Origin: an uncultured beta proteobacterium
Lineage (GTDB): Bacteria > Pseudomonadota > Gammaproteobacteria > Burkholderiales > Burkholderiaceae_F
Direction: 5' to 3'
Length of the DNA stretch: 64,000 bases
NCBI GenBank assembly: GCA_963775635.1
Contig: CAVZJO010000002.1
Location: 72,339 to 136,338, forward strand
Shown: one piece after another, positions 6,714 through 52,551 of the stretch
Numbering within the stretch: position 1 is the first letter of the stretch
How the letters are laid out: the number at the start of each line of letters is the position of its first letter
Position numbers and translations under genes: made by a program
Notes under the pieces: generated by a model
Told to the model about the DNA's origin: nothing
Seen by the model: only the letters and a program-made list of their open reading frames with translations
Databases searched by the model: none

Positions 6714-8839
<2,126 letters not shown>

Positions 8840-9991
8840 TTAGATGTTCAGCGTGAACTCCGAGAACGAGGCGTCGGAGCCGGCTTCCTGCCTTTCTTTC
8901 TGCTGCGGCATGCGGGCCTTGCCGGCGTTGTTGATGAACCACAGCAGGTTGTTCTGCGAATCGGCGGCGGCCAGCGCGTCCTCGCGCGTGATCTGGTCAC
9001 CCTGGATCAGCGAATACAGGCTCTGCTCGAACGAGATGCTCTCGGGGGCGAGGCTCTGCTCCATCGCCTCCTTGATGCCCTGCACGTCGCCGCGCTCGAT
9101 CAGGTCGGCGATATGCCGGGTGTTCATCAGCACCTCGACCGACGGCACACGGCCGCCGCGCTTGGAGCGCACCAGCCGCTGCGACACGATCGCTTTCATC
9201 GCCACCGACATGTCCTGGAACAACGCCTGGCGGGTTTCCGGCGGATAGAAGCTGATAACGCGGTTCAATGCATGCGAACTGTTGGTTGCGTGCAGCGTCG
9301 CGACGACCAAGTGGCCCGACATTGAGTAGGCGAGCGCCGCGCTCATCGTGTCGCGGTCGCGGATCTCGCCGATGAAGATCACGTCCGGAGCCTGGCGCAT
9401 CGCGCTGCGCAGCGCGGCCTGCAGCGTGCGGGCGTCGGAGCCGATTTCGCGCTGGTTGATGATCGACTTCTTGTTGCGGAACAGGAATTCGATCGGGTCT
9501 TCGAAGGTCAGGACGTGCCCGGTGATCAGCTCGTTGCGATGATCGATCATCGAGGCGATCGTCGTCGACTTGCCCGAACCGGCAGAACCGACGACCAGGA
9601 TCATGCCGCGACGCTCCATCACGAGGTCTTTCAGCACCTCGGGCAGATGCAGCGCGTCGAGCCTCGGGATGTCGTGCGGGATGAACCGGACGACCGCGGA
9701 AATCGAGCCGCGCTGCAGAAAGGCCGACAGCCGGAAGCTGCCGATGCCCTGCACCGGCAGGCCGATGTTCAGTTCGCGCGAATCCTCGAGTTCACGGAAA
9801 TGGGCGTCAGTCAGACGCTCGGCGAGCAGCGAGACGATCGACTGCGGCGCCAGCCGCTCCTGGTTGATCGGCACGCACACGCCGTTGATCTTGATGGTGA
9901 TCGGCGACCCCACCGACAGGAACAGGTCGGAGGCCTGTTTTTCGGCCATCAGGCCGAACAGGCGTTCGAGCGACAAGGGTGTTGCCGACAT
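8840..9991 (-). CDS. pilU: PilT/PilU-family type IV pilus retraction ATPase (PilU-like)
   Basis: Start is MSATPLSLE at ATG 9989-9991. Walker A is GSAGSGKST. The Asp and His boxes and the C-terminal tail (...ADSQNNLLWFINN...) look PilU-like. Confidence 0.75.
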   Translation of the reverse strand: MSATPLSLERLFGLMAEKQASDLFLSVGSPITIKINGVCVPINQERLAPQSIVSLLAERLTDAHFRELEDSRELNIGLPVQGIGSFRLSAFLQRGSISAVVRFIPHDIPRLDALHLPEVLKDLVMERRGMILVVGSAGSGKSTTIASMIDHRNELITGHVLTFEDPIEFLFRNKKSIINQREIGSDARTLQAALRSAMRQAPDVIFIGEIRDRDTMSAALAYSMSGHLVVATLHATNSSHALNRVISFYPPETRQALFQDMSVAMKAIVSQRLVRSKRGGRVPSVEVLMNTRHIADLIERGDVQGIKEAMEQSLAPESISFEQSLYSLIQGDQITREDALAAADSQNNLLWFINNAGKARMPQQKERQEAGSDASFSEFTLNI

Positions 9992-12729: not shown

Positions 12730-13157
12730 GATGGCTCTACGCGCGTCGGCGCGCCCTCGACGCCCGGCCGGACCAGCTCGATAGGCGGCTGGGGCTTCCA
12801 GCCTTTCTTGCGATGCTCGGCGATCACGGTCGTAAAGAGTCCGCCGCGTACATACCACCGCGCAGTCAGCCGGACAAAACGTGGTGCGAGCGCCTTGACC
12901 AGATCGTCGAGGATCCGGTTGGTCACCGCCTCGTGAAATGCGCCTTCATTGCGAAACGACCACACGTAGAGCTTGAGCGACTTGAGTTCAACGTTGCGTT
13001 TGTCCGGGACGTAGTCCAGCAGCAGGGTGGCGAAGTCGGGCTGCCCGGTCAGCGGACATAGGCAGGTGAACTCCGGGATCTCGATGTGGACGAGGTAGTC
13101 CCGCTGCCGCGCCGGATTGGCGAACGTCTCGAGCGTCTTGCTGGGGCGGGTGGCCAT
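12726..13157 (-). CDS. queF: NADPH-dependent 7-cyano-7-deazaguanine reductase, unimodular (type I)
   Basis: Start is [12 protein letters not shown] at ATG 13155-13157. Catalytic Cys motif [12 protein letters not shown] and QueF motif [17 protein letters not shown] overlap with the dapC start. Confidence 0.8.
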
Positions 13158-13336
13158 GGTCGCGGCTAGGGCCTGATGGTCGGTGCGCGTAGGCGATTGA
13201 CAATGCGGCCGCGGCGAGGAAATGTGCGCTGTTATTATACGAATGCAATCATTCATCCCCTCGCGCATCGTCGAGCCGTCGGCGGCCCGATCCGCGTCCG
13301 GGGCGTTTCCCCACCAGTTTCCCGTCCCATTACAAC

Positions 13337-16300
13337 GTGCGTCTACGGCAGATCAAGCTCGCCGGGTTCAAGTCGTTCATTGATCCGACTCCGATCGATG
13401 TCCCCGGCAGCCTCGTCGGTGTTGTCGGCCCCAACGGCTGTGGCAAGTCCAATGTCATCGATGCGGTGCGCTGGGTGCTCGGCGAGAGCAAGGCCGCCGA
13501 ACTCCGTGGCGAGTCGATGCAGGACGTCATTTTCAACGGATCGGTCAACCGCAAGCCGGCCGGCCGCGCCAGCGTCGAACTGGTTTTCGACAACGCCGAA
13601 GGACGGATCGGCGGCGCCTGGGCCCAGTATTCGGAGATCTCGGTCAAGCGCGTTCTGACCCGCGACGGAACGTCGGCCTATTCGATCAACAACCAGATCG
13701 TGCGCCGGCGCGACGTGCACGACATGTTCCTGGGCACCGGCCTGGGTCCGCGCGCGTACGCGATCATCGGCCAGGGAATGATCTCCCGCATCGTCGAGGC
13801 GCGGCCCGAAGAGCTTCGGGTGTTCCTCGAGGAGGCCGCCGGGATCTCGAAGTACAAGGAGCGGCGCCGCGAAACGGAAAACCGGCTGGCCGACACGCGA
13901 GACAACCTCATTCGCGTCGAAGACATCCTGCGCGAACTCGACGGCCAGATCAGTCGGCTCGAGCAGCAGGCCGAAGTCGCGGGGCGTTACCGCGACCTGC
14001 AGGCCGCGCACGACGAACAGCAGCAGCTGCTGTGGCTGTCGCGACGGCGCGAAGCCGAGGCTGAGCGCGACAAGGCGGCGCGCGACATCGAAGCGCGCAC
14101 AACTTCGCTGGAAGGCCATGTGGCCGAGTTGCGGGCTACCGAGCGCGCTCTGGAAGACGTGCGGTCCGCCCACTACGCGGCCAGCGACTCCGTGCATGAC
14201 GCGCAGGGCGCGCTGCTGCAGGTCAACGCCGAAGTAGCGCGGCTGGAGTCCGAGATCCGCATGATCGTCGAAGGTCGCAACCGACTGCAGGCGCAAATCG
14301 AGACGCTGAAGTCGACGCGGACGCGTCGGCTCGACGAGCGGACAGAACTGCTGGCGCGTGGTACGTCGCTCGCGCAGCAGATCGAGGACGCGACGCTGAG
14401 GTTGGCAGAGTCGCAGGCGGGCTGCGCGGAGCATGCAGCGACAATCCCCGCCCTCGAAGAGGCGTATCAGATTGCGCGCGAAGCGATGACGTCGGCGCGC
14501 GCCGAGGCGGCGATCTCGGAGCAGGCGATCGAGGCGGCCGGGGTCGAACAGCGCAGCGCAGACCGGCAGCTGGCGGTACTGCAGCAGCGCCGCGAACGGC
14601 TGGCCGAGGAACAGGCGTCGATCGGCTCGCCCGATGAAGAGCGGCTGGCCGCGCTACGCGAGCAGGTCGCATCACTCGAACGCGAGCTGGCCGAGCGCAC
14701 GTCGAAGCATGCCGAATCCGAACGCCATGTCGAAGAGACGACCGCGCGGCGCCAGCAGCAATCCGACGAACGCGCGAACGAGCAGGAGGCCTTGACTCGG
14801 CTCGAGGCGCGGCTGGCGGCGTTGCGCCAGGTGCAGGCCAGCGTCGAGGCCGATACACGGCTCGATCCCTGGCTCGCCTCGCAAGGGCTCGCAAGCCTGC
14901 CGCGGTTGTTCCGACGCCTGAGTGTCGAGCACGGATGGGAAACCGCGTTCGAGGCGGTGCTGCGCGAGCGCATCGAAAGCGTGGAAGTCGGTCGGCTCGA
15001 CAGCGTGGGTGGACTGGTCGCGACCACGCCGCCGGCGCGGGTTGCGTTCTATTCGCCGTCCGGTGCCGTCGCGCGCGAAGGCGGTCACATGCCCGGCTTC
15101 GACAGGCTGTCCGACCGCGTCCAGGGGCACGATGCTGCGCTCGCGGCGGTGCTTGCGGACTGGCTTGCCAATGTATTTGTTGCGCCCGACGTCGCCGGCG
15201 CGCTGGCTGCCCGCGAGCAGTTGCCGGTCGGCGGCCAGTTCGTCGTCAAGGAAGGTCACCTTGTCTCGCGCTACGGCGTACGTTTCTTCGCGGCCGACGA
15301 CGAGAAATCCGGCCTGCTGGCGCGGCGCCTGGAGATCGACAACCTCGACAAGGAAATCCGTGCGCAGCGGCTGATCGTCGATGAGCGCATCGTCAGCCTG
15401 ACGCGCACCGAGACCGGACTGCGCGAAGCGCAGGAGCAACTCGCCGCCGAGCGGCGCGAAGGCGAACGCGCGCGCACCGCGTTGCACGCGGCGCAGCTGG
15501 AGGCGGTGCGCCTGGGTGAGCTGATCGAGCGGGTGCGGCACAGGAGCGGGCAGATCGGCGCGGAACTGGCCGAGATCGAGTCACACGAATCCGAACTGCG
15601 CGCGACGCGCACCGAGGCGGACGGCCGCTTCGAGCTGCTCGACGGTGAACTCGCGACGCGGCAGGAGGCGGTGGAGGCTGCTCGCGTGCGCTACGAGCAG
15701 GCCGATCAGGCGCTGCGGGCGGCGCGCGATCAGCAGCGGGCACTCGAGTCGGCGCATCAGCAGACAGAGTTTGCCCTGACCTCAAGTCGTGAGCGCGAGC
15801 GCGACGTGACTCACGCGGCACAACTGGCGGCGGAGGATGGCGACCGCCTGCAGGTTGACATCGCAGCATCGGAGGCCGAACTGCAGCAGCTCGACGATGG
15901 TGCCGCTCGCGCCGGGCTCGAGGGACTGCTGGGTCGCCGCACCACGGCGGAGGACGGCTTAAGACAGGCGCGCAGCCGCCTCGATGAATTGGCTCAACAA
16001 TTGCGTTCGACCGACGAGAAGCGTGTGGTGCTCGAACGCGAGGTCGAGCCACGCCGCCAGAAGATCACGGAGCTCCAGTTGAAGGAGCAGGCCGCACGGC
16101 TGGCCGTCGAGCAGTATGCCGGACAACTGGCGGAAGCCGGCGCCGACGAAGTGGCGCTCAGCGGCAAGCTCACCTCGCAGATGCGCGCAGCGGCACTGCA
16201 GGCCGAGATTGCCCGCCTGTCGCAGGAGATCGAGTCGCTGGGCGCGGTCAATCTCGCCGCGCTCGATGAGTTGGAAGGCTCGCGCGAACGCAAGGCCTTC

Positions 16301-16858
16301 CTCGATGCGCAGTCGGCCGACCTGAAGGCGGCGATCAGTACGCTGGAGGACGCGATCCGCAAGATTGATCGCGAGTCCCGCGAACTGTTGCAGCAGACCT
16401 TCGACCAGGTCAACGCGCATTTCGGCCAGCTGTTCCCGCGGCTGTTCGGCGGTGGCGAGGCGCGGCTCAACATGACCGGTGAGGAGATCCTCGACGCCGG
16501 CGTTCAGGTCATGGCGCAACCGCCGGGCAAGCGCAACAGCACGATTCACCTGTTGTCGGGCGGCGAGAAGGCGCTGACGGCCACCGCGCTGGTATTCGCG
16601 CTCTTCAAGCTGAACCCGGCACCGTTTTGCCTGCTCGACGAGGTCGATGCGCCGCTCGACGACGCGAACACCGAACGGTTCTGCAGCCTGGTCGAGTCGA
16701 TGACCGAAAATACGCAGTTCCTGTTCATCACCCACAACAAAATTGCGATGGAGATGGCGCAGCAGCTGATCGGCGTGACGATGCAGGAGCAGGGGGTGTC
16801 GCGCATCGTCGCGGTCGACATCGAAGGCGCCGTGAGGCTCACCGCGGAAGCGGCCTAG
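13337..16858 (+). CDS. smc: chromosome segregation protein SMC
   Basis: 1173 aa with a GTG start. N-terminal Walker A (GPNGCGKSN), long coiled coils, and C-terminal signature [10 protein letters not shown] with Walker B ([12 protein letters not shown]). Confidence 0.9.
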
Positions 16859-16865
16859 AACTTCG

Positions 16866-20077
<3,212 letters not shown>

Positions 20078-20079
<2 letters not shown>

Positions 20080-45485: not shown

Positions 45486-46960
45486 CTATAGCTGATAGTC
45501 CATCGCCAGCCGTGATTGCAGGTCGCGGGCGATCCGGAAAGCCTCCTTCAACGATAGCCGATCCAGCTTGTTGAGCTTGTCCGGGTCAATCCGGTTCGGT
45601 TCGCCGTTGGAAGCAAGCGAATCGAGGCCAGCCTGGTGTGTGAGCCGGATGCGCTGGATCAGGTAAAACGCCGCCAGCATCGACTGCGTTTCATCGTTCG
45701 GCAGCGCGCCGATGGAGCCGGCACCGCGCAGCCGGTCTGCGGTGTTTGTCTGCGGCAGGGCGTAGGCGAGCGAATACACGCGTGCCGCATCGACGAAGGG
45801 GCGCACGCCGTACATCTTCAGGTTGATCGTGCCCGGCGTAGTTCGGCACGTCTTCGGTGATGAAGTCGCGCCAACGGGCAAGGGGCGGTTTTGCCTGGAG
45901 CGCGTTTTCCGCCATCAGGCGCAGGAAGTTCGGCCGCTTGCGTGTGACGTCGAGAAACCAGCGGCGCAGATCCGACGCCAATCGCGCGTCACCGTACAAC
46001 GCACGGAAGTCGAAGCATATCGCTGCATCGAGCAGAGCCTTCGGTTCCGAGTCGGAGAGCCAACCTTCGAGCTTGGATTTCCACTCCGCCATCGACAGGC
46101 ACAGCTCCGGGTTTGAAGCCATTACGTTGCCCTTGCAGAGCGGAAAACCGCAGGCATCGAGCGCCTCATTGACCTCACGTGCAAACGGCAAAAGGTGCTC
46201 GCGCACGCGGGCCGGCACCGGTGTCCTCATGAGCAACAAATACGATCCCGTTGTCCTGGTCAGTGGCAAAAGTCTGCTCGAGTCGCCCCTCGCTGCCGAA
46301 GGCAAGCCAGCACCAGCCGATACGATCCCAACTATGACGCCTGCGCACGAGCTCGATGATTCGCTCGCAGATGCGGTCGTTCAAGACTGACACGAACAGC
46401 GTCAACTGCTCGGCGCCGACGCCCTGTTCGAGCAGGATCCGCGTCAACTGTCGCACCCGCTCGGCCAGGCCGGCCAGCGTCGAGACGTCACGTGCCAGTC
46501 GGATTTCCATCGTCAGCTCGCCCAGGCCGAGGCGTTGCAGCGAAAACAGATCCCGTTCCGAGATCACGCCGACAAGCTGTTGGTCGCGCTCGACGAGCAC
46601 GTGACGGATACCGTGCTTGATCATCAACAATGCAGCTTCATACGAGGGCGTATGGTCGGGCAGCGACAGCGGGTCCTTCGACATGACATCGGTCACCGGC
46701 GCGTCGAGTTGCTGCTGCAATGTCGCTCGCACCAGGTCGCGTTCGGTGAAGACTCCGGTCGGGCGCTTGCGGTCGTCGACAATGACGATCGCGCCGACTT
46801 GCTCGTCGTGCATCCGCTGCACAGCGCTGCGAACCGTGTCCCATTCGCTGCAAACCAGAGGTGCGCCGCGCAGAAGACTCCGCAGGGGCTGCGCCAGCGT
46901 CTGCTGCTCACCCGCCAGGCGGTCTGGCTTGCCGATCGGAGTCGGAGAGGGATCGGCCAC
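45486..46960 (-). pseudogene. CBS-pair + DUF294 putative nucleotidyltransferase, split over three frames (two +1 breaks)
   Basis: ORFs 46175..46960 (CBS pair, then the NTase motif AFGSEGRLEQTFATDQDN), 45691..46305 (CGFPLCKGNVMASNPE...) and 45486..45881 (DUF294_C-like ...INLKMYGVRPFVDAARVY...) are collinear. The span is 1475 nt, which is 3n+2. Confidence 0.65.
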
Positions 46961-46974
46961 AGTGGCGTTTCGTT

Positions 46975-49119
46975 TCAGTATTCGAGGCGCGCAAGGTAGC
47001 TCGCGCGAGATGCATCGAGCGCCTGCGCCAGCGTGACAATGCCGCGTTCGGCGAGCAGCGGCAGCAGGCGCAGGAAGACTTCGGCGGTCACCAGTGCATC
47101 GCCGAGCGCGGTGTGCCGACCGATCACGCGCACGCCGACACGCTCGGCGATCGCATCCAGATCGTGGTTGTCCAGGCTCGGGTGCACCACCGCCGACAGC
47201 AGCAGCGTATCGAGCACCGGCTGGCCGAAGTGCACACCGGCGACACCCTCCTTCAGTTCGAGAAACCGCATATCGAAGGCGGCGTTGTGCGCCACGAGCA
47301 CGGTGTCCTCGCAGAAGCGGTAGAAGCGCGGCAGCACCTGTTCGATCGGCGGCTCATTGAGCAGCTGACGCGCGTCGATTCCGTGCACGGCAGTCGATTC
47401 GCGGCTGATCGAGCGGCGCGGGTTGACCAGCTGCTCGAAGACCTCTTGCTTCAGCAAACGGCCGTTGACGATCCGAACGGCGCCCAGCGAGATGACTTCG
47501 TCGCCCGCCGACGGCTCCAACCCGGTCGTTTCGGTATCGAATACGGTGTAAGAGAGTTCCGCGAGCTTGCGTTCGGCAAGTGCGCCGGCCGTATCGAGTC
47601 GATCGAACAGGTCGAAGTCGTAGAACTCCGGCCGACTTTCAGCGGTGCTTGTCCTGTACGCCAGCGCAGCGGGGGCTTCGCCGCGCGGCAGCAGGAAATG
47701 GAAGCGGGAGGTCTGGCGGATTTTGTCGACCTGCAGCCATGCCTCGGCGCCGTGGCGCTCGAGCACGGCGCGCAGCGACAGCGGCGTTTCTTCGGTTCCT
47801 ACGCGCATCGGTTCGCTTTCCCACAGCGAAAGCGCATCGCTGCTGACGATGGCGCCTGTCCAGATCAGGTCCACCTCGGCGAAGCCGCCACTGCTGCCGG
47901 CGCGCAGCCGAAAACCGTAGATCGTGTAGTCGCCGGCGAGCCTTGCGGCCAGAAAGGTCATCGCCTGCACGATCGCAAAGCTGTCAACGCGCACCCACAG
48001 GTTGGCGTCGGCATCCTCAACTGAGACCGGAAGCTGCAGCGCTTCGCTGATGTGCCGCTGCACCACGGCCAGCAGGTCGACCGCGCGCATGTCCTCCAGC
48101 GTCAGGCTGCCCTTCAGTGCGTCAGCATATTCGCGCAGCGCCGTGTTCAGGCGCTCGGTCAGCACTCGCGACTCGGCGACGGCGATGTCGACGAACTGGG
48201 TGCGCTGGCCGACCGGCATGTCCGGGTATGCCGCGATGTTCTCGGCCGCTGCGCGCAGGTTGGCGGCCGGCGCCCGCATGCCGGTCGCGAGCGACTGCAA
48301 CAGGCGCAGGCTCTGAGCTTCGCGGCCGACCAGGCCGCTGACGTCATCGAAGGTGAATACCATGCCAGCGACTCGCCGCTCCGTCCCGAGAAACGGTACC
48401 ACCAGCACGCGCAGCAGGGCGCCATTGGCGACCGACACCACGAAGCGCGCATGCGGACGATCGACGTGATCGAGCTGCTGCTGGATCACGTCCAATGCAT
48501 GCGCAACCTGATTGCGATCGAGCAACGCGAGCACCGATCGCCCGAGGCCGAGCGGTTTGTAATCGCCGCGGGCCGCGCTGCCTGCAGGTGGCGCCAGCAG
48601 CGCGGCGGCGCGCGGGTTGTACAGCAGAATGCGCCCGTCGGCGTTGCAGACCAGCACACCCTGCGAAAGCTCCGACATCAGCGCCGCAAAGCGGTCACGT
48701 TCCTCCTCGACACGCGCCCGGGTCTCGGCGCTGCGCTGATCGAGATCGTGTTCGATGCGATGGTAGGCGTCGGCCAGCTGGTTGATGGCGGAGGCGACAT
48801 CGGCCAATTCCGGCGCATCGGCTGTTGCAACTCGAAAGCCGCGTTCGGCAGCCAGCAGGCTGCGCGCCTGTTCGGCGAGCTGGCGTGCCGCGTGCGAATA
48901 ACGCCAAAACAGCCAGTGCCCCAACATCCCGGCGACCGCCAACAGGATCATCGTTCCGAACGCGAGCAGCGGCGCCGTCTCGCTGACCAGTGCGCTCAGG
49001 CTTGCCCGCAGTTCAGGGCCGGCTGCCAGATGGACCAGCAGCGCCCCCGCCGCCAGCACCACGAGCACGCCAACGCACGAGCTCAGTATCCAGATCGCGA
49101 CGCCGCGCCATCGTTTCAT
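46975..49119 (-). CDS. membrane HAMP-PAS-degenerate histidine-kinase-like sensor fused to a DnaQ-type DEDDh 3'-5' exonuclease
   Basis: Start is MKRWRGVAIW at ATG 49117-49119, in an ATGA overlap with the receiver stop. Two TM helices are followed by a PAS-like region. The DHp-like helix has Thr where His is expected (LATGMRAPAANLR). The C-terminus has Exo I FDTETTGL, Exo II VAHNAAFDMRFL and Exo III HTALGDAL. Confidence 0.7.
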   Translation of the reverse strand: MKRWRGVAIWILSSCVGVLVVLAAGALLVHLAAGPELRASLSALVSETAPLLAFGTMILLAVAGMLGHWLFWRYSHAARQLAEQARSLLAAERGFRVATADAPELADVASAINQLADAYHRIEHDLDQRSAETRARVEEERDRFAALMSELSQGVLVCNADGRILLYNPRAAALLAPPAGSAARGDYKPLGLGRSVLALLDRNQVAHALDVIQQQLDHVDRPHARFVVSVANGALLRVLVVPFLGTERRVAGMVFTFDDVSGLVGREAQSLRLLQSLATGMRAPAANLRAAAENIAAYPDMPVGQRTQFVDIAVAESRVLTERLNTALREYADALKGSLTLEDMRAVDLLAVVQRHISEALQLPVSVEDADANLWVRVDSFAIVQAMTFLAARLAGDYTIYGFRLRAGSSGGFAEVDLIWTGAIVSSDALSLWESEPMRVGTEETPLSLRAVLERHGAEAWLQVDKIRQTSRFHFLLPRGEAPAALAYRTSTAESRPEFYDFDLFDRLDTAGALAERKLAELSYTVFDTETTGLEPSAGDEVISLGAVRIVNGRLLKQEVFEQLVNPRRSISRESTAVHGIDARQLLNEPPIEQVLPRFYRFCEDTVLVAHNAAFDMRFLELKEGVAGVHFGQPVLDTLLLSAVVHPSLDNHDLDAIAERVGVRVIGRHTALGDALVTAEVFLRLLPLLAERGIVTLAQALDASRASYLARLEY

Positions 49120-49512
49120 TGCGTCGGAGCGCTGCCTGGTTCGAACAGCCGGTTGATCGTGGCCACCAGCTCCTGCGTGGAAAACGGCTTCGTGATGTAA
49201 AGATCGGCGCCGAGCGACAAGCCCTTGTTGACCTCGGCTTCGGTACCTTTGGCCGACAGCATCACGATCTTGATCTGAGCGAATTCGGGCCGTTCCCGCA
49301 TTCTCTGGCAGACCTCGAATCCGCTCTTGATGGGCATCATGACGTCCATCAGGACCAGGTCCGGCCGGTATGCCTCGACCTGCTCGAGCGCCTCGGCGCC
49401 GTTGGATCGCCAGGCGTACGTCATAGCCGCTCCGCTTCAGCAGGAATTCGAGCGCCGTAACGATGTTCGGCTCATCATCGACGATCAGCACTTTGCGCGT
49501 TGCTTCACTCAT
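49116..49512 (-). pseudogene. single-domain CheY-like response regulator, frame-disrupted (+1 nt near 49407)
   Basis: MSEATRKVLIVDDEPNIVTALEFLLKRSGYDVRLA (frame of 49512) continues as SNGAEALEQVEAYRPDLVLMDVMMP...MLSAKG...ITKPF (ORF 49116..49424). The span is 397 nt, which is 3n+1. Confidence 0.7.
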
Positions 49513-49581: not shown

Positions 49582-52335
49582 TCAGGCGGGTACGAGGGTC
49601 GATGCCGGGGCCAGCGGTAGTGTGAAGGAAAAGCAAGCGCCGGCGCCCGCTTCGCTTTCGACCCAGATGCGACCGCCGAAGTACTCGACGATCTGGCGGC
49701 TGATGTTCAGGCCCAGGCCCGTGCCCGGCGGCTTGGCGACCAGCGCATCTCCGGCCTGCCAGAACTTGTCGAAGATGAAGCCCTGGTCCTCGCGGCGCAC
49801 TCCGGGTCCATTGTCGCGGACGTCGATGCGCAACTCGCCGTCGAGCACACGCAGTGCCACTTCGACCCTGCCGCGGCCCTCGGGACTGAACTTCAATGCG
49901 TTCGACAGCAAGTTCATCAGCACCTGGATCAAACGGTCGACGTCGACCTCGACGGGCGGCGTGTACTCCGGCATGCGCGCCTCGAGCTGGACACCCTTTT
50001 CCTTGAACACCTGGCTCATCCTGGCCAGGCTGTCGGCCACGACGTCGCGCACGTCGACCCGCGTCATCTGCCATTCAGCACGGCCGGATGCGATCTTCGC
50101 GAGGTCAAGCACCTCGTTGATCAGCCGGGTCAGCCGCTCGGTCTCGCGGGTGATGACGCCGAGAAACTCCATGCGTTGGTCCAAGTCCACACTCGGATTG
50201 GCCAGCAGGATCTCGGAGAACGCGCGGATCGACGTCAGCGGCGTGCGCAACTCGTGCGTCACGGTCGAGATGAAGTCGTCCTTCAGGCGGTCGAGTTCCT
50301 TCAGGCGTTCATTGGCAGCTCGCAGTTCGGCGGTCGCTGCTTCCAGCTCGCGCGACTTCTGCTCCAGGCGATGGCTGTAGACCACCACCTGCGACGCTTC
50401 GTCCAGTATCGCGGTGACTTCTTCGAGCGTAAGCGCCTCTTCCTTGACCGCGGACGCGATCATGATGCGGGCCGAAGCCGAGCCGATCGCGCCGGCCAGC
50501 TGCGTTTCGACGTAATTCACAAACTCTGCGTCGGCCGTCAGTTCGTCGTTGGGCCACGACAGGCCGCGCGCGCGCGCGTAATCGGCAAAGACGGTGTCGG
50601 CAGCGGAGCTGCCGATGAACCGTGACAGCACCGCATACAACTCGCGTACCGATGCCGTGCCGCGCCAGAAGCGCGCGCCCCCCGCTTCGTGCTGGAAGGC
50701 GTCGACGAACATGCTCGCCTGCCGCCGCTCGGCTGCCGATTGCGTGCCGGCCAGTGAAACGCCAACGTACAGTCCGATGTTGGCGATCATGCTCCAGATC
50801 ATTGCGTGCGTGATCTGATCCAGACCCGTCAGTCCGAACAGGGCGAGTGGCCTGAGCAGTTCGATGCCGAACGGGCCGTGCTCCAGAAAAGAGATCGGCA
50901 ACCAGCCGGAGCGCGCCAGCGCCGGCAGCAGCAGCGTGTAGAGCCAAACGAGAAACCCCGCCACCAGTCCCGCGAGCGCGCCGCGCCGTGTCGCGCCCTT
51001 CCAGAAGATGCCTCCGAGCACGGCCGGGGCGAACTGCGCGACGGCCGCGAACGAAATCAGCCCGATCGACACCAGCGCATAGGCCTCGCCGGCCAGGCGG
51101 AAGTACAGATACCCGAGCAGCAGCACCATTACGATCGCGCCGCGCCGGATGCCGAGTATCAGGCCGGTCAGATCCGGCCGCGCGGCCAGCCGCAGCCGCT
51201 GCATGCGCAGCAGCACCGGCATCAGCAGGTCATTGCAGACCATCGTCGACAATGCAATCGTTTCGACAATAACCATTCCGGTGGCAGCCGACAGTCCGCC
51301 GATGAACACCAGCAGCGCCAGCATTTCCTGATGCTCGACCATCGGCAACGTAAGCACATAGGTATCGGCGTCGACATTCCCGCCCGGAAAATGCAGCCGG
51401 CCGCCGAATGCGATGGGCAGCACGAAGATGTTGATCGCAAGCATGTAGACGGGGAACACCCAGATCGCCTTCTTCAGGTGTCGTTCGTCGACGTTTTCGA
51501 TCACCGCGACCTGGAACTGGCGAGGCAGGAACATGATCGCCAGCATCGACAGGATGGTCAGCCAAACCCAGCTCGCATAACCGCCGGCAAACACCTCCAA
51601 TGGTGTCAGCAACTGGGCGATCTTCGGTACTGCAGCCGCACGATCGAACAGGTCGCCGAATCCGTCGTAGATCCCCCAAGTCACGAAGGCGCCAACCGCA
51701 AGAAACGCCAGCAGCTTGACCAGCGATTCGAACGCAATCGCCGCCACCATCCCCGGATGGTGTTCGGCGGCGTCCAGATGACGGGTGCCGAAGGCGATTG
51801 TGAACAGAGCCAGGATCAGCGCGACCCACAAGGCAGTGTCCTGCAGCAGCGGCGCAGCTCCCAGCTTGGCCGGCATGACGATCTCCGGATACTGCATGAT
51901 GATCGTGAAACTGTTCGAGACTGCCTTCAACTGCAGCGAGATGTACGGCACGATGCCGATCACCGCGATGATCGTGACGACGCCGCCGAGCAGCGCGCTC
52001 TTGCCGTAACGCGATGCCACGAAGTCGGCCAGCGACGTGATGCGGTTCTGCTTCGAAATGCGCAGGATCTTGCGCAGGACCAGCCACCACAGGGCGATCA
52101 TCAGCGTCGGCCCGATGTAGATCGGCAGGAACCCGACGCCGTCGCTCGCGGCGCGGCCGACGCTGCCGTAAAACGTCCACGCTGTCGCATAAACGGCCAG
52201 CGACAGACTGTAGATGTAGGGACTGGCTATGACCGGCCGGCCGCTGTCAGCGCGCTGGTCGGCGTAATAGGCGATGGCAAAGAGCAGCCCGAGGTAGGCG
52301 AACGAGGTGGCGACGATGACGCTGCCCTGGAGCAT
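49582..52335 (-). CDS. sensor histidine kinase with N-terminal sodium:solute symporter (SLC5) domain and STAC-like linker (CbrA/CrbS-type)
   Basis: 917 aa. About 500 aa of polytopic SSS-like domain, then a linker, an intact H-box STVTHELRTPLTSIRAF, and HATPase N/G boxes (LLSNALKF, DNGPGV, GTGLGLNI). There is no receiver domain. Confidence 0.8.
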   Translation of the reverse strand: MLQGSVIVATSFAYLGLLFAIAYYADQRADSGRPVIASPYIYSLSLAVYATAWTFYGSVGRAASDGVGFLPIYIGPTLMIALWWLVLRKILRISKQNRITSLADFVASRYGKSALLGGVVTIIAVIGIVPYISLQLKAVSNSFTIIMQYPEIVMPAKLGAAPLLQDTALWVALILALFTIAFGTRHLDAAEHHPGMVAAIAFESLVKLLAFLAVGAFVTWGIYDGFGDLFDRAAAVPKIAQLLTPLEVFAGGYASWVWLTILSMLAIMFLPRQFQVAVIENVDERHLKKAIWVFPVYMLAINIFVLPIAFGGRLHFPGGNVDADTYVLTLPMVEHQEMLALLVFIGGLSAATGMVIVETIALSTMVCNDLLMPVLLRMQRLRLAARPDLTGLILGIRRGAIVMVLLLGYLYFRLAGEAYALVSIGLISFAAVAQFAPAVLGGIFWKGATRRGALAGLVAGFLVWLYTLLLPALARSGWLPISFLEHGPFGIELLRPLALFGLTGLDQITHAMIWSMIANIGLYVGVSLAGTQSAAERRQASMFVDAFQHEAGGARFWRGTASVRELYAVLSRFIGSSAADTVFADYARARGLSWPNDELTADAEFVNYVETQLAGAIGSASARIMIASAVKEEALTLEEVTAILDEASQVVVYSHRLEQKSRELEAATAELRAANERLKELDRLKDDFISTVTHELRTPLTSIRAFSEILLANPSVDLDQRMEFLGVITRETERLTRLINEVLDLAKIASGRAEWQMTRVDVRDVVADSLARMSQVFKEKGVQLEARMPEYTPPVEVDVDRLIQVLMNLLSNALKFSPEGRGRVEVALRVLDGELRIDVRDNGPGVRREDQGFIFDKFWQAGDALVAKPPGTGLGLNISRQIVEYFGGRIWVESEAGAGACFSFTLPLAPASTLVPA

Positions 52336-52353: not shown

Positions 52354-52551
52354 CTAGTCTTCGCGTTCAATCGCGTGCGCCATCAGGACGATCAGCACTG
52401 TCCAGGCGCCAAAGATCCATGCGTACAGTGCCGGAATGCCGAAGAAGGTGTCAGGGCGGTTGAACAGCGCCAGGATCGGGTAGTTGAACAGCAGACACCC
52501 CAGCATGCATAGAGCCACTAGGCGGGCGGTTCGACGTCCCGGCTTCAGCAT
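52354..52551 (-). CDS. small two-TM membrane protein (DUF3311-like) preceding the SLC5-kinase
   Basis: ATG 52549-52551 lies 6 nt after AAGGAG. 65 aa with two hydrophobic helices (LVALCMLGCLLFNYPILALF; IPALYAWIFGAWTVLIVLMA). 18 nt upstream of the kinase gene. Confidence 0.55.
   Translation of the reverse strand: MLKPGRRTARLVALCMLGCLLFNYPILALFNRPDTFFGIPALYAWIFGAWTVLIVLMAHAIERED

Follow-up and report, generated by a model that had tools for sequence, protein, structure and literature searches.

A mainly betaproteobacterial family of membrane pseudo-histidine-kinases joined to a predicted DEDDh exonuclease and encoded in a conserved operon

Domain layout of the sensor-exonuclease protein

A 64,000-nucleotide stretch of an uncultured betaproteobacterial genome (assembly GCA_963775635.1, contig CAVZJO010000002.1, positions 72,339 to 136,338; here called the window) encodes a protein of 714 amino acids (aa) in which a membrane module resembling a sensor histidine kinase (HK) is joined to a DEDDh exonuclease. 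The open reading frame (ORF) lies on the minus strand, with its ATG at 49119 and its stop codon at 46975-46977; translation of the plus strand over 46975-49119 is interrupted by a stop. A preliminary description, made from the letters of this DNA alone, had the coordinates of the gene right and overlooked that it is read from the minus strand. The protein is laid out as follows, where TM stands for transmembrane, DHp for dimerization and histidine phosphotransfer, CA for catalytic and ATP binding, and AF2 for AlphaFold2, and where the operon kinase is a genuine HK encoded two genes upstream:

46975-49119, minus strand: whole coding sequence, pseudo-histidine-kinase sensor plus DEDDh exonuclease (ORF, Pfam, NCBIfam, AF2, Foldseek)
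49027-49098, minus strand: TM helix 1, residues 8-31 (hydropathy peak and AF2 helix 3-32)
48907-48978, minus strand: TM helix 2, residues 48-71 (hydropathy and AF2)
48673-48906, minus strand: HAMP-like helix-connector-helix and signaling helix, residues 72-149 (alignment to VicK HAMP and PAS, Pfam HAMP, AF2)
48334-48672, minus strand: PAS domain, residues 150-262 (Pfam, AF2, conservation)
48106-48333, minus strand: degenerate DHp (HisKA-like) hairpin, residues 263-338 (hhalign to the operon kinase, VicK and DivL alignments, column counts)
47680-48096, minus strand: CA-like (HATPase_c-fold) domain without ATP-binding motifs, residues 342-480 (hhalign, column counts, AF2, Foldseek)
47605-47634, minus strand: linker motif RPEFYDFDLF, residues 496-505 (family conservation, AF2)
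47020-47565, minus strand: DnaQ/PolC-type DEDDh 3'-5' exonuclease, residues 519-700 (RNase_T, PDB 2p1j, Foldseek, residue counts)

The loop between the two TM helices is about 16 residues long, and the protein therefore lacks a periplasmic sensor domain. The HAMP and PAS region of VicK aligns to the N terminus at an E value of 3e-7, and AF2 models the HAMP-like segment as a helix to residue 90, a loop at 91-102, and a helix at 103-149. The linker motif, RPE[YF]YDFDLF across the family, is among the most conserved stretches of all members, yet it is disordered in the AF2 model (predicted local distance difference test [pLDDT] of <50). It resembles a short linear interaction motif and is loosely like the beta-clamp-binding pentapeptide QL[SD]LF, a likeness that is pure speculation.

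A histidine kinase fold without kinase chemistry

When the protein was scanned as a single sequence, Pfam returned RNase_T at residues 526-682 and weak PAS matches; HisKA and HATPase_c had no Pfam match even at an E value of ≤1 and none in NCBIfam, which groups the C terminus with the PolC, DnaQ, and DinG types of DEDD exonucleases. Among 14 family members scanned singly with Pfam, PAS was found in all 14 (best E value, 1e-7), HAMP in 8, and HisKA in 3 (best E value, 1e-4), and HATPase_c was found in none of them even at an E value of ≤10. A profile of 42 homologs searched against PDB sequences retrieved VicK (4i5s; 5.6e-9), ThkA (3a0r), the PAS domain of WalK, DivL (4q20), HK853, and exonucleases, with the DHp domain of DivL aligning to residues 266-397. 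In the VicK and DivL alignments, the family string SLATGvRAPvANlR falls on NVSHELRTPLTSVK and NVSYELRTPL, respectively, a register that makes Thr279 (codon 48283-48285) the phospho-acceptor position, with Gly280 at H+1 and Ala283 at H+4. Alignment with hhalign (HH-suite) of family residues 262-490 to a profile of the genuine operon kinases gave a probability of 98.7% and an E value of 2.2e-16 over 218 aligned columns, which span both DHp and CA.

Structure prediction pointed the same way. A first AF2 model, built on a shallow alignment of 42 sequences, was good over residues 1-480 and poor over the exonuclease (pLDDT of <50); a second, built on 115 diverse sequences, had a mean pLDDT of 86.7. 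In the second model, two TM helices are followed by a HAMP-like helix-loop-helix and a PAS fold (150-260). The DHp hairpin has its helices at 261-297 and 303-338, the CA-like domain (342-479) is of the alpha/beta type with five strands, and residues 487-511 form a disordered linker ahead of an RNase H-like exonuclease fold. Foldseek searches of PDB with the N-terminal part matched WalK (1.6e-19), VicK (6e-16), LOV kinases of the YF1 type, ThkA, and HK853, and the DHp/CA part additionally matched CpxA and ZraS. Thus hhalign, the AF2 secondary structure, and Foldseek agree on a DHp hairpin followed by a Bergerat-fold CA domain in the predicted structure. Judged by profile alignment and modeled fold, residues 1-480 are homologous to kinases of the WalK/VicK type (PDB 4i5s and 9a5d), which provided the best profile and Foldseek matches and have the same TM-HAMP-PAS-DHp-CA order. 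Whereas WalK and VicK are active and carry the H, N, G1, F, and G2 boxes, the family described here lacks the catalytic residues and carries an additional nuclease domain.

The hhalign register gives the fate of each box, with the genuine kinase first and the pseudokinase second:

H-box: His-Glu; T279-G280
N-box: the two Asn of NLLSNA; F389 and R393 (in VQAMTFLAARL)
G1: DNGPG; W420-T-G422-A-I (in DLIWTGAIV)
F-box: Phe; W433
G2: GTGLGL; E443-E-T-P-L-S

In the same register the lid between the F-box and G2 is shortened, and ATGMRAPAANL aligns residue for residue to THELRTPLTSI of the operon kinase; in the VicK alignment it falls on SHELRTPLTSV. Residues were counted in two sets, the first consisting of 78 species-level orthologs from GTDB genomes (44-90% identity) and the second of the window protein together with 116 sequences that each represent a 50%-identity cluster (29-54% identical to the window protein), 117 in all:

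Position 279 (His column): E36, Q13, D13, T8, A6, S1 in the 78; E66, Q9, A8, D7, T6, R6, K5, and others in the 117
Position 393 (N-box Asn column): R69, K6, H2, Q1 in the 78; R71, Q17, K6, and others in the 117
Position 420 (G1 Asp column): W in 77 of 78; W in 111 of 117

No sequence in either set has His at column 279 or Asn at column 393, and the canonical HisKA phosphatase motif is likewise absent from both sets, H+1 being mostly Gly and H+4 being Ala, Ser, or Gly. All of the features expected of an active kinase (the H-box His with an acidic H+1, the N-box Asn, and the G1 and G2 loops) are thus missing. These counts identify the loss of kinase chemistry as a family trait and not a local accident. 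Because the His and the acid at H+1, the Asn of the N-box, the Asp of G1, and the glycines of G2 are all missing from the family, the pseudokinase, to judge from its residues, cannot bind ATP or autophosphorylate canonically. Column 279 is mostly Glu, Asp, or Gln family-wide, and Thr or Ala is confined to the subclade of the window protein.

The substitute residues are themselves conserved (W375, D379, R393, W420, W433, H456, and E459), which argues that the CA-like domain is selected for something other than ATP binding. The first DHp helix also stays conserved (R282, L285, I288, R289, A290, A291, and E293). The acidic, phosphomimetic-like residue at position 279 in much of the family suggests that the site still faces a partner.

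It could be argued that the HK-like core remains catalytic, either as a phosphatase acting on the phosphorylated receiver or as a noncanonical kinase. His-less HisKA kinases can keep phosphatase activity, which provides a general precedent, and the prevalence of acidic or amide residues (E/D/Q) at column 279 indicates that this column is not drifting freely. However, the phosphatase motif of HisKA (E/D at H+1 and T/N at H+4) is replaced by Gly280 and Ala/Ser283, the N, G1, and G2 motifs are all replaced, and HATPase_c is matched by none of the 14 members scanned. We therefore consider a catalytic core very improbable.

The exonuclease domain

The C-terminal domain matches RNase_T (PF00929) at 119.8 bits against a cutoff of 24 (E value, 2.2e-34) and TIGR00573 dnaq at 100.9 against a threshold of 71.5. 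The best exonuclease match of the 42-homolog profile in PDB is 2p1j (E value, 5e-40). The five DEDDh residues lie in FDTETTGL (D528 and E530), HNAAFD (D616), and HTALGD (H669 and D674); they are invariant in 42 close homologs and kept in 111 to 114 of the 117 sequences. The AF2 model has an RNase H-like alpha/beta fold with pLDDT values of about 90-95 over residues 520-700, and Foldseek matches it to the PolC exonuclease (root mean square deviation, 1.6 Å over 188 columns), DinG-exo, ExoX, and epsilon (template modeling score [TM], 0.83-0.87; 0.83-0.85 for Escherichia coli epsilon). From its residues and modeled fold, the DEDDh exonuclease looks active and is apparently competent. The DnaQ epsilon and PolC exonucleases (PDB 2p1j, 1j53, and 9qrn) share its DEDDh fold and five catalytic residues, with 43-44% identity to Thermotoga maritima 2p1j. 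Unlike them, the exonuclease here is tethered to a membrane signaling module, outside a polymerase or a replisome subunit.

Most of what the preliminary description said of the protein stands. The two TM helices, the HAMP-like segment, and the PAS-like region that it named are borne out by hydropathy, by Pfam matches in family members, and by AF2. Its reading of ATGMRAPAANL, with Thr in place of the phospho-acceptor His, agrees with both the hhalign and VicK alignments, and its H-, N-, and G1-box assignments were exact, hhalign placing F389/R393 and W420-T-G-A-I where the N-box Asn and DxGxG had been reported lost. The complete epsilon-type DEDDh exonuclease is confirmed by the RNase_T match and the five catalytic residues. 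It had also called for a profile alignment that checks the loss of kinase residues and the retention of the DEDDh residues, which hhalign and the counts in 78 and 117 sequences supply in its favor, and for a structure prediction, in which AF2 and Foldseek give a WalK/VicK-like N terminus and a PolC/epsilon-like C terminus. We are nearly certain of this architecture and of the kinase being dead.

The operon in the window and its frameshifts

Four further genes on the same strand surround the pseudokinase-exonuclease gene:

52354-52551, minus strand: small two-TM protein, 65 aa (conserved upstream of the SLC5-like kinase)
49582-52335, minus strand: genuine sensor histidine kinase, 917 aa, with an SLC5/SSF-like membrane domain (Pfam, hhalign)
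49116-49512, minus strand: single-domain receiver, 131 aa (the frame-corrected protein matches Response_reg at 1.9e-32)
45486-46960, minus strand: CBS-DUF294-DUF294_C nucleotidyltransferase (NTase) gene (the pieces match CBS, DUF294, and DUF294_C in Pfam)

The N terminus of the SLC5-like kinase matches SSF at an E value of 3.4e-5, and its HisKA and HATPase_c domains are intact, with the H-box (THELRTP), N-box, G1, and G2 all kept. The ATG of the exonuclease gene overlaps the TGA of the receiver gene as caATGAaa.

Two of these genes are frameshifted in the window, as read against locus L002 and the close relative L083 (85.5% DNA identity, same synteny), in which the receiver and NTase genes are both intact. 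The receiver gene has a +1 insertion (an extra T) at about 49407, and +1 insertions at about 46216-46219 and 45834-45840 break the NTase gene into three ORF pieces. None of the three insertions lies in a long homopolymer, and all other coding indels between the window and L083 are multiples of three. The other genes checked in the window are intact (an ORF of smc size, ligA, rnhB, fabZ, lpxA, ppsA, prpD, smpB, the kinase, and the exonuclease), so the frameshifts look confined to the receiver and NTase genes. These insertions reflect either genuine inactivation of the two genes or errors in the local assembly. The overlap of the exonuclease start with the stop of a lone receiver had been noted in the preliminary description; that the receiver is frameshifted in the window had escaped it, and its account of the module omitted the downstream CBS-DUF294 NTase, the most informative partner of the exonuclease.

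The receiver frameshift joins the first 34 receiver codons in frame to the exonuclease gene, producing a mechanical ORF of 845 aa (46975-49512, minus strand), which automatic annotation could take for a fusion protein. Adjacent same-strand ORF pairs flagged by third-codon-position GC content (GC3) had raised the prospect of general sequencing-error frameshifts in the window, which was rejected, as Pfam resolved them into separate intact genes: methyltransferase and M20 peptidase; fabZ and lpxA; prpD and methyltransferase; and ligA, rnhB, and a SpoU methylase. Elsewhere, positions 16840-18040 (plus strand), between an ORF of 1,173 aa (13337-16858) and ligA (18046-20079), show a high-GC3 coding signal of 1.2 kb spread over three plus-strand frames. 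Pieces of this interval had no Pfam or NCBIfam match, and it could be a low-complexity gene (in a zipA-like position) or another frameshifted gene.

Distribution of the family and its gene neighborhood

More than 1,660 homologs were found at an E value of ≤1e-5 in a database clustered at 90%, nearly all of about 710-730 aa and named only "DNA polymerase III subunit epsilon" or "exonuclease domain-containing protein." A profile search of 1.84 billion representatives gave 628 clusters (50% identity) at an E value of ≤1e-30, and the best 150 of the 628 all have the same architecture or are fragments of it. The family occurs in at least 540 of about 185,000 species genomes, mostly of Betaproteobacteria and also in metagenome-assembled genomes (MAGs) of Bacteroidota and Chloroflexota; members are annotated from Caldilineaceae MAGs as well.

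Gene context was counted over 81 loci, comprising a scan of one genome per species and locus L001, with informative loci as denominators. A receiver gene sits directly upstream in 68 of 73 loci, to which L058, where the receiver overlaps, can be added (~94%); for the SLC5-like kinase the upstream count is 57 of 63; and DUF294 follows downstream in 50 of 72 and occurs anywhere in the locus in 51 of 60. All 73 receiver orthologs retain the residues of the phosphorylation chemistry, D12, D13, D56, T/S86, and K108. In a neighbor search over 83 sequences (82 loci and the window), 33 had acs within 6 kb and 34 to 40 had a DUF4212-type SSF permease within that distance; neither is present in the 64-kb window. 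The module also adjoins acs in a Bacteroidota MAG, at 37% identity. In 54 of the 83 sequences, including the Bacteroidota MAG, the 65-aa two-TM protein (LFNYPILALFNRP...GIPxLYxYIFxAW) is encoded just upstream of the SLC5-like kinase (its coordinates elsewhere are, for example, 4608-4805 in L001 and 3288-3485 in L082); it probably serves the transporter-like sensor as an accessory subunit.

Some loci depart from the common arrangement. A second pair of receiver and pseudokinase-exonuclease paralogs lies a few kilobases downstream of the first in L006 (~13136-14131) and L075 (~8035-9030), and many Rhodocyclales loci have two DUF294 paralogs in tandem. In the Accumulibacter locus L051, the gene has Band7/SPFH, DUF4178, and a large phosphofructokinase as neighbors, and an AbiEii/AbiEi toxin-antitoxin pair lies close by.

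This context bears on whether the module could be an anti-phage or nucleotide-signaling conflict system, with the NTase making a signal for a membrane nuclease effector, or whether the protein could be a plain proofreading epsilon subunit of Pol III. An NTase, a nuclease, and TM helices together look superficially defense-like, and a generic DEDDh model of PADLOC matches the exonuclease domain, while the database label of the family favors the epsilon assignment. Against the first idea, the synteny with acs, the permease, and housekeeping genes is chromosomal and stable across hundreds of species; against the second, a membrane sensor module of 500 residues is incompatible with an epsilon subunit of the replisome. 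We give hardly any credence to either. A defense system was also rejected by the PADLOC scan itself, which returned no system-specific model, only the generic DEDDh match and a marginal 2TM match, and left the NTase unmatched.

A possible route from the receiver to the exonuclease

We propose that the SLC5-like kinase would sense a monocarboxylate or the state of transport and phosphorylate the output-less receiver. Once phosphorylated, the receiver would dock on the DHp (and CA) surface that the pseudokinase retains, in the way that phosphorylated DivK docks on DivL; the signal would then run along the dimeric helical spine and the conserved RPE[YF]YDFDLF linker and turn the exonuclease on or off. 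As an eraser, the exonuclease could act opposite the DUF294 NTase as writer, on a common substrate that is a nucleotide or nucleic acid with a 3'-OH. Within the module, the DHp/CA region of the pseudokinase would be the only plausible local target of the receiver. Docking of the phosphorylated receiver on the dead DHp domain had been put forward in the preliminary description as an idea for testing; the intact receiver directly upstream in about 69 of 73 loci and the precedent of DivL and DivK speak in its favor. The reading of the protein as a membrane pseudo-HK (two TM helices, HAMP, PAS, DHp, and CA) with a linker-joined DEDDh exonuclease, taken together with this entire mechanism, is one that we hold tentatively and consider close to, and slightly under, evenly balanced; the docking and gating step, judged separately, is possible and somewhat doubtful.

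Several points weigh against this route. The partnership between the receiver and the pseudokinase is so far a genomic one. Mutual information between them (average product corrected, 72 operon pairs) showed no enrichment in the DHp domain, in an analysis dominated by clade splits that does not itself count against docking; its top pairs are scattered over the exonuclease, CA, and PAS. The circuit in the window may be nonfunctional, its partner genes being frameshifted. Four Accumulibacter loci (L038, L051, L055, and L056) carry the protein without the kinase, receiver, or DUF294, and hence the pseudokinase-exonuclease can work or persist without partners. Finally, a likeness to proofreading exonucleases does not discriminate among DNA, RNA, and small oligonucleotides as substrates. 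A comparison of the specificity positions of the HK853 type (H+8, +11, +15, +34, and +37) between the real and the dead DHp domains found A+11, I+34, and E+37 in common; we take these to be general HisKA consensus and draw no inference on a shared partner.

Some of the same observations would fit a self-contained sensor and dimerization scaffold, in which the PAS domain or the TM helices do the sensing, the helical spine relays the signal to the exonuclease, and the receiver makes no contact with the protein and signals elsewhere, for example, to the DUF294 enzyme or a different target. The best-conserved residues of the N-terminal part sit in PAS (N168, G191, and LGRS at 192-195), the receiver is missing altogether from the Accumulibacter loci, and the clade-split-dominated mutual information of the 72 pairs gave no signal of coevolution with it. 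On the other hand, ~94% of loci have the receiver gene directly upstream, its stop codon often overlapping the start codon that follows; the receiver lacks an output domain, the module offers it no other obvious partner, and the first DHp helix is still conserved. We regard a self-contained scaffold as unlikely, while giving it real weight.

A pairing of the pseudokinase with the SLC5-like kinase itself, through a DHp heterodimer or contacts between membrane helices, would modulate that kinase or recruit the nuclease to it and leave the receiver as a phosphate sink or shuttle. Both proteins are membrane embedded and co-operonic, they have a common PhoR/WalK-like HisKA layout (R..L..IRA..E.L...P......R.RF...I..E), and the pseudokinase has almost no periplasmic loop. 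Their DHp domains are, however, only ~18% identical overall, and a hetero-oligomer leaves the persistence of the lone protein in Accumulibacter unexplained. Such a pairing seems improbable.

Relation to known systems and implications

The closest conceptual precedent for a receiver-gated exonuclease is DivL of Caulobacter crescentus (PDB 4q20), which likewise has a HisKA/HATPase fold without a phospho-acceptor His and a single-domain receiver, DivK, as its partner. In DivL, the catalytic output domain of a kinase has been turned into a sensor whose input is a response regulator's phosphorylation state (PMC4211667). DivL has Tyr at the His position, lacks an enzymatic output domain, and controls the kinase CckA, whereas the protein described here has Thr in the window (mostly E, Q, or D in the family), has lost all of the ATP motifs, and is fused to a DEDDh exonuclease, and its receiver link is a genomic one. 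The family thus shares with DivL an HK fold without the His and a dedicated single-domain receiver, the latter by genomic partnership only and frameshifted in the window copy. NifL (PDB 9qq6), a PAS-H-GHKL anti-activator that Foldseek also matched, is another HK-derived protein that signals through protein-protein contacts without phosphotransfer. NifL keeps a nucleotide-binding GHKL domain, regulates NifA, and carries no nuclease. To our knowledge, pseudo-histidine-kinases are rare, DivL being the main studied case, and we know of none fused to an enzymatic nuclease output.

A second parallel comes from Pseudomonas, where an RNase_T exonuclease adjoins a cNMP-CBS-DUF294 NTase (PA3232/PA3233, PP_0353/PP_0354, and Pflu5625) and is connected with an SLC5-type kinase and with acetate and propionate genes, a likeness drawn from gene context. 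Similarly, the exonuclease gene in the window adjoins CBS-DUF294-DUF294_C, and at other loci the SLC5-type kinase is associated with acs and the permease. The PP_0353/PP_0354 pair is the strongest target of MxtR/ErdR (CrbS/R) (bioRxiv 10.64898/2026.09.07.749794). While the Pseudomonas pair is a transcriptional target of CrbS/CrbR, in the module described here the SLC5-like kinase and an output-less receiver share the operon and the exonuclease itself carries the pseudokinase, which suggests posttranslational control. Extending this, the module could be a posttranslational branch of monocarboxylate (acetate-switch) signaling, in which the receiver "reverse-signals" into a kinase-dead scaffold and thereby gates a membrane-tethered exonuclease that erases the product of the CBS-DUF294 enzyme, either the 3' tail of a specific RNA or a small (oligo)nucleotide messenger; in this specific form we think it unlikely. 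The retooled CA pocket, with its conserved W420, W433, R393, H456, and E459, may bind that nucleotide product instead of ATP.

We found no publication on the family in the literature on pseudo-HK/exonuclease, DnaQ/HAMP/PAS/receiver, or DUF294/exonuclease combinations. The parts are known (a pseudo-HK, a DEDDh exonuclease, and the DUF294/exonuclease pair); their fusion and the fixed operon are undescribed. The names given in databases hide the signaling half of a large and unrecognized family. Its operon ties the family to the unexplained exonuclease/NTase pair of CrbS/R, and a system in which the components are physically linked makes the function of that pair experimentally approachable. If the exonuclease is indeed gated by the receiver, this would be the first two-component pathway with a nuclease, and not transcription, as its output, and it would offer a handle on the function of the PA3232/PA3233-type pair.

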